Source: Escherichia coli (lineage in GTDB: Bacteria > Pseudomonadota > Gammaproteobacteria > Enterobacterales > Enterobacteriaceae). Taken from it: a stretch of DNA of 64,000 nt. The first letter of the stretch is position 1, and the number at the start of each line of letters is the position of its first letter. Below the pieces are notes generated by a model that saw only the letters and a program-made list of their open reading frames with translations, was not told the origin of the DNA and ran no database searches. This document shows, one piece after another, positions 17,621-31,649 of this stretch. The stretch lies in the NCBI RefSeq assembly GCF_003991155.1, contig NZ_CP031295.1; one strand, written 5' to 3'. Made by a program: the position numbers and the translations under genes.

Positions 17621-18238
17621 TTACCGTTCAGTTTTTTCGGTTGACGCGGACTGTTCCTGCATGGTTTTCATCTTTAGCTTCTGTTGTTCCCTTACTGCCA
17701 GCCAGCGTCTGGCATTCAGCGCATCGCATTCTGATACCTGACCTGCTGGTAGTCCATCCAGTCCATAACGAGGGATACCTGCGACAGCAGTACGCTGCAG
17801 ATATACCTGTCGGGTGGTGATGCAGGATATTGCACAGGACCATTCATCCAGTGTCAGTTCTGTCTCAGGGTGTTCTGTCAGGAATGCGGCAAAATCATTG
17901 GTTATGCCAATTTTCAGTGGAAGAAATCCTCCGCCTTCTGCGCGAAGATGGGGAAACAGAGACTTCACTTTTTCCACGCAATCGTGAGTAAATTCATGAG
18001 TCCAATGAGGCTGGCGTGGAAAACGGCGTCTTTTCTTTTTTTTCTTACAGGCAGGAGCATCAGGGGTATGAGTATCGACGGCAGGCGAACTGATCCCCTC
18101 AGAGACTGATTCTTCCATCTTTTCTGTCTCTGAACGTGCGATAACACCTGTTTTTTCAGATAAGGAAGGGGGTAAAAGAGTGCGACGTTTTTTCACCATA
18201 ATGATGGGTGTTTTCTTTTCTTCCTGATATTTCCCCAT
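17621..18238 (-). CDS. ProQ/FinO-domain RNA-binding protein
   Basis: Lys/Arg-rich tract (KKKKKRRR) followed by FLPLKIGITNDFAAFL...RYGLDG, resembling ProQ/FinO domain. Confidence 0.45.
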   Translation of the reverse strand: MGKYQEEKKTPIIMVKKRRTLLPPSLSEKTGVIARSETEKMEESVSEGISSPAVDTHTPDAPACKKKKKRRRFPRQPHWTHEFTHDCVEKVKSLFPHLRAEGGGFLPLKIGITNDFAAFLTEHPETELTLDEWSCAISCITTRQVYLQRTAVAGIPRYGLDGLPAGQVSECDALNARRWLAVREQQKLKMKTMQEQSASTEKTER

Positions 18239-18525
18239 AAAAACCTCTACGATGTGTTCTTATATAATAATATATATCATATTTTCACGATTAACATAAT
18301 ATCTTCGTTAAGAAAACAACAGAGCAAAATTTGTTTTTTTTTGACAGGCATGAAATGAGCCAGCATAATTATATTAATTATTATCCCAAATGAGTTTTTG
18401 TATTTGCTCATTCGGGATGGTTGGATATTTTAAGTTATATCTACTGTATCATTCTCAGGTAATCGTTCCATTAAATCAGAAACTACGGGCTGTAACCAGT
18501 CAGTGACTTCACTCACATACTGATG

Positions 18526-19992
18526 TCATTCGGGATGCCTGGAGGCCAGATCCATCACTCGTGTTAACCCGGACGGACGATCAATGCCCAATTTAGTTAA
18601 AATATTCGAGATATAATTATGAGCATCAAGTTCAACTCTGATATCCCTTGCTGCTTCGATTATTTCTAAATATTCGCCACCCAATCCGTCCAGTGGGACA
18701 TTTGTAATAAGATAATGAATGTATTGTTCAGGCTTAACCCCATTTGGGAGATTAAATTGTTTTACTTTTCCTTCCGCTGCCGCTTTTAACTCATAAGTTC
18801 GTGATTCTGTGCCGGTGAAAACTTTATCACGAGCAGTTTTCTTTTCATTTTCTGTGGAATATTTATCGCCATCAAGAATATAAAGTTTACCAGATAGATT
18901 GTCACCACGAATAAGGGTACTGGCAAGTAGAGTGAATGCGTTTGAAGCTGCGCCAAATTTAAATATTTTTACATATTTGCTGGCCTTAAGTGAAGAACAT
19001 ATTTTATTTATTATGGCAACAGCTAAGTCATCTTCTACATATATTTCAATAGGCGTCGTTGATTCACCTGTTAATCTGTTTATAGCATCAGGTTTTGTTT
19101 CTTCAAATGAATAACTACGGCCTTGAATGTTTACGACGTGTCTTATATTTATCTTGTCTGATAAAGTGGTTATCATTTCTCTATGGGTAGTAAAGATGAT
19201 TTGTTTGTTTTTATCTTTGGCATGAGATGATATGACTTCTATTAACTTTTTCAATGCTTCGTCATGCAACAATAAATCTAATTCATCAATTAATATTAAG
19301 GCGTTCTTGTCCGCTTTCAATATTGTTTCCAGAATTAAAAATATCTTTTGCTCTCCTGCGCTCATACTCAATGATGAGTAGGCCAGTCCCCCTGACTCAA
19401 CTCCAATCAATATTTTTCCATTGGGTTGTTGATGCTGATTGAAACTTGTGTATGGTTTATTAAGTATATAGGAGGCGTAATGAAGAATGTTTGTTATTAA
19501 ATCATTACTGACACTGCTGGTTTCATACTGAATATTATTCTTTTTTTCTGATTCTATTATAGGAACACATTTATCAATGCCAAGATAGTAAACTTCTCTT
19601 AAAGGACGACGAGCATAAATCTGAATCCATCGTGAGCCTCGAATATCTGCTTTTCCATAATTTTTCAATTCATTTTCAATCATTACCCCATCTTTACGAT
19701 AAGTTAAATTTACAATGAAGTCACTGCCGTTCCATTCAGCATGTGGGCTGCGTGGAAAAAAATGCATTAACCGATGGTCTTCACCGGGGAAACCTTCTTC
19801 AGGCATGTATATGCTTGCTATAGCATGGAGTATTGTTGATTTTCCGCTTCCATTTGGACCTAAAATTGCGGTTAACGCATGAGGTTTAAAAATAATCTCG
19901 TTTAATCCATTTATACATTTTAGTTTGTTAATTTTAATGGAGTTCAAGACTTGACCAGTAATGGTTTTTTTATTTTTTTCTGCCATTTTCAA
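18526..19992 (-). CDS. OLD-family ABC ATPase-TOPRIM nuclease (defence-associated), apparently solo
   Basis: Walker A GPNGSGKST, signature/Walker B LSMSAGEQK...ILIDELDLLLHDE, H-loop FTTH; C-terminal TOPRIM-like IEIYVEDD and YILDGDKY; AT-rich. Confidence 0.55.
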   Translation of the reverse strand: MKMAEKNKKTITGQVLNSIKINKLKCINGLNEIIFKPHALTAILGPNGSGKSTILHAIASIYMPEEGFPGEDHRLMHFFPRSPHAEWNGSDFIVNLTYRKDGVMIENELKNYGKADIRGSRWIQIYARRPLREVYYLGIDKCVPIIESEKKNNIQYETSSVSNDLITNILHYASYILNKPYTSFNQHQQPNGKILIGVESGGLAYSSLSMSAGEQKIFLILETILKADKNALILIDELDLLLHDEALKKLIEVISSHAKDKNKQIIFTTHREMITTLSDKINIRHVVNIQGRSYSFEETKPDAINRLTGESTTPIEIYVEDDLAVAIINKICSSLKASKYVKIFKFGAASNAFTLLASTLIRGDNLSGKLYILDGDKYSTENEKKTARDKVFTGTESRTYELKAAAEGKVKQFNLPNGVKPEQYIHYLITNVPLDGLGGEYLEIIEAARDIRVELDAHNYISNILTKLGIDRPSGLTRVMDLASRHPE

Positions 19993-20248
19993 ATCCTAGC
20001 ATTATGTTGGGGGGATTCACCATGTAATTCAGAAACATATAACTGTGAACAGGGGATATATCAAATCCTTTTAATATTCTATTTGGCACAGTATTCTACA
20101 TCAGGCCTCTTTTATGCTACAGACTTTTTGAGATGTCTGTAATTTTAGACTTAATGTTATGACTGATCATATCTCCTATCCACTGGTGGCGCAGGAAAGT
20201 TAACCAGCTGCCACCATGGGATGATGTGTAAACCGTGCTGGTATGTTT

Positions 20249-29777: not shown

Positions 29778-30128
29778 ATGTTTACTGCATTCAATGAGAG
29801 AAATGATTTCAGTTATGCTTTTGAAAAAATCCGTAATGCGATTTCCGCGCCAGGAGAAAATAATCTTTATGCTGCAACAGAATTAGGTCTTGGCATTCTG
29901 CTCCGTAAATACGAGCAGTTTCGCCAGGAACTGGATGCGGCCGGTGAGCTGGGAAACTGGGAATATGATCTCGATACCTACAATCACTGTATTGCGGTGC
30001 TGCAACGTTACTTCACCGGCAATCCATCCGGGCTCACAGAACGTGATGCCCGGATTTACAGCCATTACCTGCAGACTGAGCACAAAGGCTTTGTGAAGCT
30101 GGCTGAAGAACTGGCTGCCGACCGCTGA
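29778..30128 (+). CDS. hypothetical protein (116 aa)
   Basis: ORF with GAGGAAAGG RBS-like sequence upstream. Confidence 0.4.
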   Translation: MFTAFNERNDFSYAFEKIRNAISAPGENNLYAATELGLGILLRKYEQFRQELDAAGELGNWEYDLDTYNHCIAVLQRYFTGNPSGLTERDARIYSHYLQTEHKGFVKLAEELAADR

Positions 30129-30171
30129 ATACATACAGAAGGCGGGATTTCTCAACAATAAAGGAATAAAC

Positions 30172-30861
30172 ATGGCTGACTGGTTTATTGCGACCGAAGG
30201 CGTGAAGGTGGTGAAGGACAGCGCCAGTCTGGGGCCGCAGATAATTACAGCTGTATCGACCATCGCATCTGCTGTCGGAGCGGTGTTCCTTACTCACCAC
30301 TTCACACTCAGACGTGAGGAGAGAACTGCAGCAGCGAAGCTGGCCAGCGAGCGTCTTTACATTAGTACAGAGCTGGTTTTTTTACTTGAGCGATTTGCGC
30401 AGCGTTGCGCTCCAGCAGCAACAGCAACTGTGGAGCACGATCAGGATGGCAGAGGAGAAGCTGAGTTCTTATTACCGGAAATCGATTATTCCCCGGTATC
30501 TGGTAACTGGCGCTCCCTTCCTTCTGGCCTGATGTATAGGCTCAGCGAACTCTCTGTTCTCAGCTACGAAGCTGTCGTGTGTGTAGATAATGTGTTTGTT
30601 GAAGATACTCCTTATGGTGGAGCGGGTGAATATAGTTTGCATAAAAACGCAGCTATGTTGGGAGTAAAAGCACTGCGGTTATCACGAGAACTGAGAATGT
30701 TATGTGGCCTCCCTCTGCACGGCCTTTCCGATACACTATCGCCAACGAGGTTGGTATTGTTGAAAGCCAGAGGTAAAACACTCCAAAAGGAGTACGAAAT
30801 GGTAAAGAAGTCTAAAAAGACCGAGCAAGAGATTGAGGATTTCATAAAGGGGACATCATGA
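30172..30861 (+). CDS. hypothetical protein with N-terminal hydrophobic segment (229 aa)
   Basis: Hydrophobic stretch IITAVSTIASAVGAVFL; 4-nt overlap with following recombinase gene. Confidence 0.4.
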   Translation: MADWFIATEGVKVVKDSASLGPQIITAVSTIASAVGAVFLTHHFTLRREERTAAAKLASERLYISTELVFLLERFAQRCAPAATATVEHDQDGRGEAEFLLPEIDYSPVSGNWRSLPSGLMYRLSELSVLSYEAVVCVDNVFVEDTPYGGAGEYSLHKNAAMLGVKALRLSRELRMLCGLPLHGLSDTLSPTRLVLLKARGKTLQKEYEMVKKSKKTEQEIEDFIKGTS

Positions 30862-31649
30862 GTGGCCCACAATTGCTTTCCCTGCCAGGTTCTTTTTTAA
30901 CGCCTCCGGCAACATTACCTGTTGCCATTGATTACCCGGCTGCGCTGGCACTACGTCAGATGGCACTTGTGCAGGACGAATTACCAAAATATCTGTTGGC
31001 GCCGGAGATCAGCGCCCTGCTCCACTATGTACCGGATCTGCACCGCAAAATGTTGCTGGCCACCCTGTGGAACACGGGCGCACGTATAAACGAAGCGCTG
31101 GCGCTGACGCGGGGAGATTTTTCTCTGGCGCCGCCATATCCGTTCGTACAGCTGGCCACGCTCAAACAACGGACTGAAAAAGCGACCAGAACGGCAGGCC
31201 GTGTCCCTGCTGGCAGTCAGGTGCATCGCCTGGTTCCCCTGTCCGATACACAATACGTCAGCCAACTGCAGATGATGGTGGCCACGCTGAAAATCCCACT
31301 GGAGCGCAGAAACAAACGAACCGGAAGAATGGAGAAGGCGCGCATCTGGGGAATCACCGACCGCACAGTTCGCACCTGGCTGAATGAAGCTGTAGAGGCC
31401 GCTGCGGCCGACGGCGTGACGTTCTCTGTTCCGGTTACCCCACATACTTTCCGCCATTCCTACGCGATGCATATGCTGTATGCTGGTATTCCGCTGAAGG
31501 TGCTGCAGAGCCTGATGGGGCACAAGTCGATTAGTTCGACAGAGGTGTACACGAAGGTGTTTGCGCTGGATGTGGCTGCACGGCACCGGGTGCAGTTTTC
31601 GATGCCTGAGTCCGATGCTGTCACAATGCTGAAAAACAGACACGCATAA
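30858..31649 (+). CDS. tyrosine site-specific recombinase (ResD/XerD-like paralog)
   Basis: 263 aa; catalytic region [44 protein letters not shown]; diverged paralog of resD at 37454. Confidence 0.75.
   Translation: MSGPQLLSLPGSFLTPPATLPVAIDYPAALALRQMALVQDELPKYLLAPEISALLHYVPDLHRKMLLATLWNTGARINEALALTRGDFSLAPPYPFVQLATLKQRTEKATRTAGRVPAGSQVHRLVPLSDTQYVSQLQMMVATLKIPLERRNKRTGRMEKARIWGITDRTVRTWLNEAVEAAAADGVTFSVPVTPHTFRHSYAMHMLYAGIPLKVLQSLMGHKSISSTEVYTKVFALDVAARHRVQFSMPESDAVTMLKNRHA

Follow-up and report, generated by a model that had tools for sequence, protein, structure and literature searches.

Background

The closest described relatives of the locus treated here are the "Delta gene set" of plasmid R64, i.e. 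the region from repZ to the recombination site rfsF, and the pif locus of plasmid F. With these two regions we compared a stretch of 64,000 nucleotides from Escherichia coli (contig NZ_CP031295.1 of RefSeq assembly GCF_003991155.1; the whole stretch is hereafter the window), in which a block of approximately 14 kb with anti-phage and other accessory genes stands beside the gene of the tyrosine recombinase ResD. rfsF and ResD are known for multimer resolution, and Delta and Col gene sets switch at a single rfsF site, an exchange already proposed for the R64 set, where the rfsF boundary is at R64 nt 43,620 (PMC8004404). The site has been described as imperfect inverted repeats of 10-14 bp with a spacer of 6-8 bp (PMC5587640), the order rfsF, oriV1, ccdAB, resD and "two rfsF sites" in pEC958 are on record (PMC4398462), and rfsF-ResD has been named as a possible route of foreign-segment acquisition in IncR and IncFII plasmids (PMC9412624).

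The Delta set changes phage type and inhibits phages via ibfA and pifA: ibfA acts on phages of the BF23/T5 type and is implicated in P22 phage-type conversion, and pifA excludes T7 (PMC8004404). IbfA of a 97%-identical IncI1 plasmid aborts P22-like phage and is a homologue of HEC-04 (PMC12111858), the defence activity of which requires Walker A and TOPRIM residues (bioRxiv 10.1101/2024.01.29.577857). Exclusion of T7-like phages by F PifA depends on gp1.2 or the capsid protein, and the gene is routinely deleted from F for permissive phage hosts (PMC11990801). Storage of anti-phage cassettes in arrays is known from chromosomal integrons (bioRxiv 10.1101/2024.07.02.601686).

Identity with the R64 Delta gene set and the F pif locus

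By BLAST, window positions 15340-29659 corresponded to R64 (NC_005014) 29509-43893 with 98.8% identity over 14,385 bp, and this colinear unit kept the gene order of R64 with identical protein accessions, i.e. arsR, ydaA, a ProQ/FinO-domain gene, an AAA ATPase, the genes of 196 and 85 amino acids (aa), a second AAA ATPase, vapCB, a 96-aa gene, a TIR gene and pifA. Nine proteins were 100% identical to those of R64, and IbfA was 99.8% identical. The block is colinear with the R64 Delta set (nt about 29,968-43,619, including ibfA and pifA) and like it ends at rfsF. The TIR protein, PifA and PifC were each 100% identical to the proteins of F (NC_002483), with the same accessions, and they lie as in F immediately left of rfsF/oriV1. 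Judged by these identities, the gene content is already known as the R64 Delta/F pif region, here on a colicin plasmid.

The surroundings differ from both references. Neither the IncI1 replicon nor the adjacency to repZ is present; instead, IncFII repA, pemIK and, between IS26 copies, a tet(A)/aph(3')-Ia region lie farther left, beyond arsR and a permease gene, and the colicin M, colicin B and ColV genes (cmi, cma, cbi, cvi, then ompT and mig-14) follow on the right, which makes the host plasmid of the IncFII/ColBM-ColV type. To the right of rfsF, where F continues with ccdA-ccdB-resD-repE-sopAB, the window has a 116-aa gene, a 229-aa gene and resD before the colicin M/B genes, and this operon is only ~81% identical in DNA to the right flank of R64. 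Two genes also differ from their R64 alleles: the ibfA of the window has a premature stop, and its pifC is intact in comparison with a 2-bp frameshift in R64.

An earlier note on this DNA had placed a defence island on an F-like ColV/ColBM backbone at 17621-31649, with a recombinase as its right border. The backbone was recognised correctly, and the OLD-like, Rad50-like, TIR-like and KAP genes, vapBC, the coupled pairs and the ResD-like recombinase were all located where the note had put them, by an open reading frame map, by PADLOC, NCBIfam, Pfam and PHROGs scans, and by the annotation of the 100% identical plasmid pPBS4. Both edges have to be moved. On the left the unit begins at 15340, where it is truncated by IS26, and takes in what the note had called the arsenic remnant; on the right the junction is inside rfsF at 29402/29403, and the 116-aa gene, the 229-aa gene and resD belong to a different lineage from the R64-type segment left of it.

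Three rfsF-type sites subdivide the block

The pattern AGATCCG-N14-CGGATCT, searched with at most two mismatches, was found three times in the window (at 21275, 24563 and 29386) against 0.16 expected, and 0 of 100 shuffles reached three. Each site is 28 bp long, with 11-bp inverted arms around a 6-bp spacer (11-6-11), and all three are in direct orientation. The right 8.1 kb of the block may on this basis be read as a two-cassette array between three rfsF-type sites, in the order of a hypothetical gene pair of 85 and 196 aa (the anchor pair), s1, cassette B (3.3 kb), s2, cassette C (4.8 kb), rfsF, and the genes of 116 aa, 229 aa and resD:

21275-21302, plus strand: s1, rfsF-like site, AGATCCAGTTT CCGGCT AAGTCGGATCG, joins the anchor pair to cassette B
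21292-24579: cassette B, 3,288 bp, with the PDC-S06 ABC ATPase, vapC and vapB
24563-24590, plus strand: s2, rfsF-like site, AGATCCGAAAA AAGGTT AAGTCTGATCT, joins cassette B to cassette C
24580-29402: cassette C, 4,823 bp, the F pif locus, with the 96-aa gene, the TIR gene, pifA and pifC
29386-29413, plus strand: rfsF core, target of ResD, AGATCCGAAAA CCCCAG GTTACGGATCT, with the right junction at 29402/29403

Each cassette would then have the right arm of a site at its left end, and the left arm plus spacer of the next site at its right end. The array spans 21275-29413 only and leaves ibfA and the FopA-like (ProQ/FinO-domain) gene outside, because no rfsF-like site was present at the recurrent 20176-20182 breakpoint or at 17525, where it was searched for.

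The exact rfsF core occurs once in the window and has a single nucleotide changed relative to the site of F; its R64 counterpart begins at nt 43,620. Neither a second full rfsF core nor att-like repeats flanking the whole block were found in the window. The right junction is sharp on both sides. Against R64, F and p44A_2 the window had no substitutions and a single 9-bp indel at 29100-29401, and many substitutions from 29402 onwards; against pRHB18-C20_2 the left side was unrelated, and there were 0 mismatches at 29403-29800. The rfsF region was present in at least 5,000 plasmids of PLSDB, and many of the alignments begin at query position 23-24, i.e. window 29402-29403.

The two other sites coincide with recurrent homology breakpoints as well, s1 with those at 21290-21293 and s2 with those at 24560-24587, where F homology starts (24563) and pHNFKD271 homology ends (24587). 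A survey of the s2 junction in PLSDB returned 1,009 records with one side and 256 with the junction, and several left-only matches at s2 (98-100% identity) stop at 24579, the last spacer base.

Two small differences were seen near the right junction. At 29402, the final base of the rfsF spacer, the window and ColIb-P9 have G where R64, F, p44A_2, pRHB18-C20_2 and pHNFKD271 have A, and the 9-bp unit CTAAAATTA upstream of pifC, present in two copies in F and R64, occurs once in the window (29331). The single unit and the G could be a footprint of exchange.

Reassortment of the cassettes in other plasmids

Other plasmids carry different arrays at the corresponding place, in which cassettes B and C recur next to other cargo, including cyclic oligonucleotide-based anti-phage signalling systems (CBASS):

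pEc1079_1: CBASS, B, a 1039-aa gene, DUF3800, then ccdAB
pEh10_1: Ppl-like gene, C, CBASS, then the resD operon
pHNFKD271: anchor pair, B, a second HEC-04-like gene with PDC-S64 and a PifC-like gene, CBASS, then the resD operon
p4_4.1: F-identical RepFIA, with CBASS replacing the pif cassette
pKSH203-KPC: Gabija and vagCD adjoining a site
ColIb-P9 and comparison loci L010 and L011: anchor pair, site, other cargo, then rfsF

Cassette B is a discrete unit in pEc1079_1, 99.8% identical over window 21292-24581 inside a different array. The site between CBASS and B in that plasmid is the exact composite AGATCCGAAAA AAGTAA + AAGTCGGATCG, of which the left arm and spacer are those that follow CBASS in pHNFKD271 and p4_4.1, and the right arm is the one that precedes cassette B in the window. 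Among plasmids and integrative and conjugative elements (ICEs), the cargo at this position comprised CBASS, Ppl-like genes, a second HEC-04-like gene, Gabija and PD-T4-5.

States without cassettes were also found. In p1524kTc1, which has the colicin Ia set and no cassettes, the anchor pair is directly followed by the hybrid site AGATCCGGTTT CCGGCT GTTACGGATCT, i.e. the left arm and spacer of s1 joined to the right arm of rfsF, and the right flank is 100% identical to the window from 29403. The sequence of plasmid pF11A is that of F as far as AGATCCGAAAAAAGGTA, after which come the right arm of rfsF and the flank with ccdAB. Since pF11A is without cassette C at exactly this site, F has, relative to it, a 4.8-kb pif cassette inserted there. 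Together with p4_4.1, this suggests that the F pif locus may itself be an insertable 4.8-kb cassette, of which no prior description was found in the literature.

The idea that cassette-specific spacers serve as stable barcodes was considered and dropped, as it holds among close relatives and fails across genera.

The exchange point within the site

Pairwise identity by site position was compared for 30 sites from 15 loci. Site pairs with only the left flank in common (n = 24) agreed at 9.3 of 10 bases in positions 8-17 and at 1.25 of 4 in positions 18-21. For pairs sharing only the right flank (n = 51) the values were 4.2 of 10 and 3.6 of 4, respectively, and the background of unrelated pairs (n = 337) gave 4.3 of 10 and 1.3 of 4. 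A per-position profile of 85 sites from 63 loci likewise changed abruptly from position 17 to position 18. As read from these profiles, exchange is always between site positions 17 and 18. An exchange placed where flanking homology is absent argues against RecA-type recombination in the conserved arms and for site-specific cleavage and joining.

ResD and the operon right of rfsF

The operon next to the array comprises the following genes:

29778-30128, plus strand: 116-aa gene
30172-30861, plus strand: 229-aa membrane-anchored gene with one N-terminal membrane helix, PADLOC PDC-S67 (1e-17)
30858-31649, plus strand: resD, tyrosine recombinase, plasmid multimer resolvase, Pfam Phage_integrase

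Over 244 aa the recombinase shares 91% identity with F ResD, and the alignment shows the catalytic residues R, HxxR, H and Y. A 99.6% identical copy of resD was found in pRHB18-C20_2, of which the left cargo differs (a Ppl-like gene), and the recombinase of p1524kTc1 has the same accession as that of pPBS4 (WP_000016493.1). R64 and F carry the same cargo as the window beside other ResD variants, ~81% identical in DNA. Because it is nearly unchanged in sibling ColBM plasmids with different left cargo, the recombinase is, on these comparisons, assigned to the backbone as ResD and not to the block as an island integrase. ResD scored 47-62 bits against integron-integrase models with cut-offs of 265-435.

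The slot upstream of resD is variable, with ccdAB in F, a 137-aa gene in R64, genes of 116 and 247 aa (35% identical) in pHNFKD271, and those of 116 and 229 aa in the window. An operon of a small gene, an S67-like gene and an integrase gene is also present in a Pectobacterium ICE, and a similar operon in an Atlantibacter chromosome. Members of the PDC-S67 family always stood immediately before a gene for a ResD-like recombinase and in most cases followed a gene of ~116 aa (loci L014, L015, L016, L025, L045 and L068). The defence label of the family more likely stems from association, because its place is in the resD operon beside the hotspot, in an ICE and a chromosome as well, and the 116/229-aa pair probably serves plasmid maintenance.

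Gene content of the block

PADLOC families in the block were HEC-04, PDC-S06, PDC-S35, PifA and PDC-S67, which puts three or more separate defence systems, known or candidate, into ~15 kb. Two of these, PifA and IbfA, are experimentally established, and three (PDC-S06, PDC-S35 and PDC-S67) are PADLOC candidates only, for which the literature search returned the names in census tables and no published validation. GC content alternates sharply between genes, as the earlier note had observed, with a per-gene range of 0.35-0.65 (ibfA 0.35, 196-aa gene 0.65, PDC-S06 0.50, vapC 0.59, TIR gene 0.47, pifA 0.49, pifC 0.63). Three gene pairs are coupled, i.e. 85 + 196 aa, 96 aa + TIR and 116 + 229 aa. 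PifC and the proteins of 85, 196, 96 and 116 aa returned nothing informative in Pfam, NCBIfam, PADLOC or PHROGs, and the 229-aa protein, apart from its PDC-S67 match in PADLOC, had no informative domain in Pfam, NCBIfam or PHROGs.

Cassette C contains four genes:

24689-24979, plus strand: 96-aa gene, overlapping the TIR gene by 11 nt
24969-25868, plus strand: TIR protein of 299 aa, Pfam CAP12-PCTIR_TIR (8e-37), PADLOC PDC-S35 (2e-65)
25918-28143, minus strand: pifA (the "KAP" gene), Pfam KAP_NTPase (6e-43), PADLOC PifA (3e-290), 100% identical to F PifA
28145-29236, minus strand: pifC, repressor of 363 aa, 100% identical to F PifC, with a 1-nt gap to pifA

The catalytic glutamate of the TIR protein, E235 in NVLYELGYF, aligns with NVVFEFGLF of the Cap12 structures 9LMQ and 7UN8, and Cap12 was its only hit in sequence searches of the PDB, which returned nothing for PifA. 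Its N-terminal 140 residues matched no family. PADLOC and NCBIfam scans detected no cyclase (CD-NTase or Pyc) beside it in the block, where the 96-aa protein, to which it is translationally coupled, is its sole partner. The TIR protein is predicted to be an abortive effector that depletes nicotinamide adenine dinucleotide. It shares with the TIR effectors of CBASS and Pycsar (Cap12/PycTIR) the PF10137-type TIR domain and the conserved Glu, and differs from them in having no adjacent cyclase.

With regard to pifC, the R64 gene has a 2-bp insertion (TG) near position 15830-15835 of locus L008 (= window 28604) relative to the window and F, which causes a frameshift, and pifC is missing from the R64 gene table; the pifC of the window is intact and identical to that of F. 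Diverged PifC/PifA pairs (PifC 36-85%, PifA 39-46% identical) were seen immediately left of an rfsF-like site in many genera of Enterobacterales (L025, L032, L046, L048, L053, L054, L057, L061, L068, L073 and others). They represent a PifA family that has diversified at one constant location, possibly with differing phage specificities.

Cassette B contains three genes:

21450-23588, plus strand: PDC-S06 ABC ATPase (the "Rad50-like" gene), 712 aa, PADLOC PDC-S06 (5e-286), Pfam AAA_13, weak LmuB/SMC matches
23750-24166, minus strand: vapC, NCBIfam VapC
24163-24393, minus strand: vapB, NCBIfam VapB

PDC-S06 is a predicted, candidate defence gene, for which a sequence search of the PDB gave only a marginal ABC-transporter match (E = 2.8e-4). 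The vapBC pair serves plasmid maintenance.

The left part of the colinear unit and its border comprise the following features:

14520-15339: IS26 copy by which the R64-type segment is cut off on the left, matching IS26 copies of pPBS4; R64 homology begins at 15340
15340-15660: truncated arsH, part of the arsenic remnant (15340-17328)
15821-16144, minus strand: arsR, protein 100% identical to R64 ArsR
16249-17328, plus strand: ydaA permease gene, 18 codons shorter than R64 ydaA and 87% identical
17621-18238, minus strand: FopA-like RNA chaperone with a ProQ/FinO domain, Pfam ProQ (4.6e-12), 100% identical to the R64 protein
18526-19992, minus strand: ibfA, ABC-ATPase-TOPRIM (the "OLD-like" gene), PADLOC HEC-04 (4e-42), 99.8% identical to R64 IbfA
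20249-20839, minus strand: 196-aa gene of the anchor pair
20839-21096, minus strand: 85-aa gene of the anchor pair; the pair has 65% GC and no Pfam, NCBIfam or PADLOC match

In IbfA, Walker A (GPNGSGKS, residues 45-52) and Walker B (LIDELD, 234-239) were identified together with matches to Pfam AAA_21, AAA_23 and SMC_N. The TOPRIM residues are E320 in YVEDD and D374/D376 in LDGDK (HEC-04 reference residues E319, D375 and D377), and the HEC-04 profile covers residues 3-393. A premature stop, with T at 18526 compared with C in pHNFKD271, shortens the protein by 32 residues at its C-terminus, beyond the TOPRIM motifs. The truncated allele is also present in pPBS4, and the 518-aa form in R64 and pLZ135-NDM.

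The anchor pair is the most widespread sub-module of the block in PLSDB, occurring in thousands of plasmids, and the first rfsF-like site follows immediately on its right in ColIb-P9, L010, L011, L012 and at least 10 species-level loci. It was always the leftmost element of the array, and the N-terminus of the 196-aa protein, read from sequence alone, resembles a winged helix. A role of the pair in a recombination platform is conceivable.

The ProQ/FinO-domain protein is 69% identical to FopA/YafB of ColIb-P9. FopA is an RNA chaperone that binds the Inc antisense RNA of repZ (PMC7491321), and the gene was rejected as a defence gene in favour of a replication-control chaperone of the FopA type. 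The shorter ydaA of the window fits the 54-bp-deletion variant known in some IncI1 Delta plasmids (PMC8004404). To the left, a multiresistance region bounded by IS26 (window 4700-15339, with tet(A), aph(3')-Ia and several IS26 copies) lies between the IncFII replicon and the R64-type segment, and the rest of the R64 arsenic operon has been removed by IS26.

Occurrence of the arrangement in Enterobacterales

A scan with one genome per species returned 72 loci related to ResD, from which 55 Enterobacterales loci were usable. These had 51 sites in 409 kb upstream of resD compared with 2 in 444 kb downstream; at the stringency of the search, 44 of the 55 had at least one site and 6 had at least two. 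Among the cargo upstream of resD were the anchor pair, VapBC and DUF3800, and 13 loci had diverged PifC/PifA pairs there. In the Pectobacterium ICE, CBASS and PD-T4-5 lie left of the operon of a small gene, a PDC-S67-like gene and an integrase gene.

Six further loci (L079-L083 and L085, from Aquimarina, Desulfosporosinus, Amazonocrinis, Raphidiopsis, Alicyclobacillus and Aeromicrobium) had one and the same ResD fragment, residues 148-260 at 90% identity. Its presence in unrelated phyla looks like a remnant of mini-F-derived bacterial artificial chromosome or fosmid vectors in public assemblies.

Discussion

We consider it probable that the block is the R64 Delta/F pif region and that its right part is an array of rfsF-bounded cassettes; that the cassettes represent a real recombination architecture is taken on its own as likely, at somewhat lower confidence. 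The block would be a stack of self-contained defence modules, i.e. PifA, IbfA, the TIR pair and PDC-S06 beside VapBC. PifA would act, as is established for F, as a PifC-repressed KAP NTPase that aborts T7-type infection on gp1.2 or the capsid protein, and IbfA as a HEC-04 ABC-ATPase-TOPRIM nuclease that blocks phages of the BF23, T5 and P22 types, as shown for near-identical homologues; for PDC-S06 and the TIR pair, activity in defence is predicted from their sequences. ResD, encoded just downstream, is the likely catalyst at the sites. Because the spacers differ between sites, the reaction would probably exchange one strand only and be completed by replication, comparable to the Xer-cer and integron attI x attC reactions.

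Several points weigh against this interpretation. Many of the site pairs are related by descent and are not independent events. The action of ResD on s1 and s2 is something we infer, and the differing spacers are not tolerated by a classical tyrosine recombinase for a complete exchange. Over long evolutionary distance a spacer is not bound to one cargo, CTGTGA being found beside PifC-like, VapC and Ppl-like genes. An rfsF-like boundary is lacking in the left part of the block, which holds the FopA-like gene, ibfA and the anchor pair, and there is no site at the 20176 breakpoint. Some cassettes are without defence signature, i.e. a sugar-modification cluster, the 1039-aa gene (no PADLOC match), DUF3800 and a RES-domain gene, and IbfA without its 32 C-terminal residues may be impaired.

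One alternative is an ordinary mosaic, formed by homologous recombination and IS26 reshuffling, in which the palindromes are ResD operators or terminator-like hairpins that only mark module edges. The left edge is indeed an IS26 junction, the 20176 breakpoint is without a site, the heterologous spacers speak against a canonical tyrosine-recombinase reaction, and every site lies 150-290 bp upstream of a leftward operon (pifC, vapB, the 85-aa gene or the CBASS cyclase). ResD, as the D protein of mini-F, was reportedly also described as a transcriptional repressor by Lane and colleagues in 1986, so that on this alternative the sites could be operators. Against it stands the position of the switch. 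Homologous exchange is expected inside the arms (positions 1-7 or 22-28), so that the spacer would go along with the right flank, or positions 18-21 would stay attached to the left one, and the opposite was observed: the switch falls at 17/18, where partner sites share no homology. Moreover, the hybrid sites are exact modular composites, and sites of 28 bp are too short for efficient RecA-dependent exchange. A mosaic of this kind is for these reasons regarded as unlikely.

The earlier note had read the recombinase as the bounding element of a defence island, and the corresponding model, in which it inserted the whole 14 kb into a ColV/ColBM backbone, has in its favour a tyrosine recombinase at the right edge and a cargo rich in defence genes. 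It was rejected, as only one exact rfsF core is present and the left edge is IS26 and not an att site, and we rate it as highly improbable. The recombinase is 91% identical to F ResD, it is kept in pRHB18-C20_2 (99.6%) and p1524kTc1 (WP_000016493.1) despite different left cargo, the same cargo stands beside other ResD variants (~81% in DNA) in R64 and F, and the homology junction is 1.45 kb left of resD, at rfsF. The original proposal came close in one respect, in that the target of ResD forms the right junction and further rfsF-like sites subdivide the block; the recombinase itself stays with the backbone when the cargo differs. Nor is a conserved housekeeping backbone with over-interpreted defence annotations a credible reading, the least probable of those considered, even if vapBC, the FopA-like gene, ResD and the 196/85-aa pair are of maintenance type or very widespread. 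The block is accessory, with at least 80% of it present in only 165 of the 5,000 best-scoring PLSDB records, close relatives (the sibling ColBM plasmids p1524kTc1 and pRHB18-C20_2) have other cargo at the same place, and the anti-phage phenotypes of PifA and IbfA are experimental (PMC11990801, PMC12111858, PMC8004404). The comparison with related plasmids and the run of defence-system predictors that the note had called for thus bear out an accessory, variable and defence-rich block; its label of a defence island is qualified by the fact that the region was already known as R64 Delta/F pif.

The cassette array proposed here resembles integrons in being a row of discrete units beside a tyrosine recombinase gene, with composite half-site junctions, an asymmetric exchange point, an empty-platform state and defence-enriched cargo, and in having non-identical partner sites, which imply a reaction of the single-strand-exchange type. 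It differs from them in the enzyme, ResD and not IntI, in the double-stranded 11-6-11 palindromes in place of folded attC hairpins, and in the cassettes, which are 3-5 kb long and multi-gene, are encoded on both strands with their own promoters and regulators, and form arrays of 0-4. The pdif modules of Acinetobacter are likewise accessory modules that include toxin-antitoxin pairs, are bounded by 11-6-11 sites and reassort between plasmids. The present sites have another sequence, and all of them share the outer arms AGATCCG/CGGATCT, which we take to be unlike the dif consensus, and direct, not alternating, orientation, so that they do not belong to pdif; the presumed enzyme is ResD and not XerCD, the cargo is mainly anti-phage and not resistance, and the hosts are Enterobacterales. 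Several complementary anti-phage systems are also clustered on the conjugative plasmid pEFER, in an island of bacteriophage exclusion (BREX) and type IV restriction (PMC8565348). The systems of the window are instead abortive-infection NTPases, TIR and ATPase-TOPRIM proteins, and the site-bounded modularity is not seen in pEFER.

In a wider reading, which we advance tentatively and with slightly more doubt than trust, ResD/rfsF would be a general and so far undescribed platform, similar to an integron, on which multi-gene anti-phage cassettes are stored and exchanged. Its layout would be anchor pair, site, (cassette, site) repeated, addiction-gene slot and resD; its cassettes would include pifCA, CBASS, Ppl-like, Gabija + vagCD, PDC-S06 + vapBC and DUF3800, with PDC-S06 and the 96-aa + TIR pair as genuine defence systems; and it would reach across IncF, IncI, IncK and IncR plasmids and some ICEs of Enterobacterales. 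No prior description of rfsF-bounded defence cassettes was found in the literature, where the papers returned dealt with integrons and other islands, with the R64 genome paper (Sampei et al. 2010), which may mention secondary sites, lying outside the search. The novelty is in the cassette architecture, since the gene list alone is that of a known textbook region.

Two candidate systems, PDC-S06 and the 96-aa + TIR pair, are by this analysis flagged on F and R64, the most studied plasmids. If true, the platform would account for the movement of anti-phage systems among the clinically dominant IncF and IncI plasmids, and it would supply a simple rule, a 28-bp site with exchange at 17/18, by which cassette boundaries and new candidate defence genes may be located in thousands of plasmids. 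This would be of relevance for phage therapy against extraintestinal pathogenic and avian pathogenic E. coli (ExPEC/APEC) strains with ColV/ColBM plasmids.

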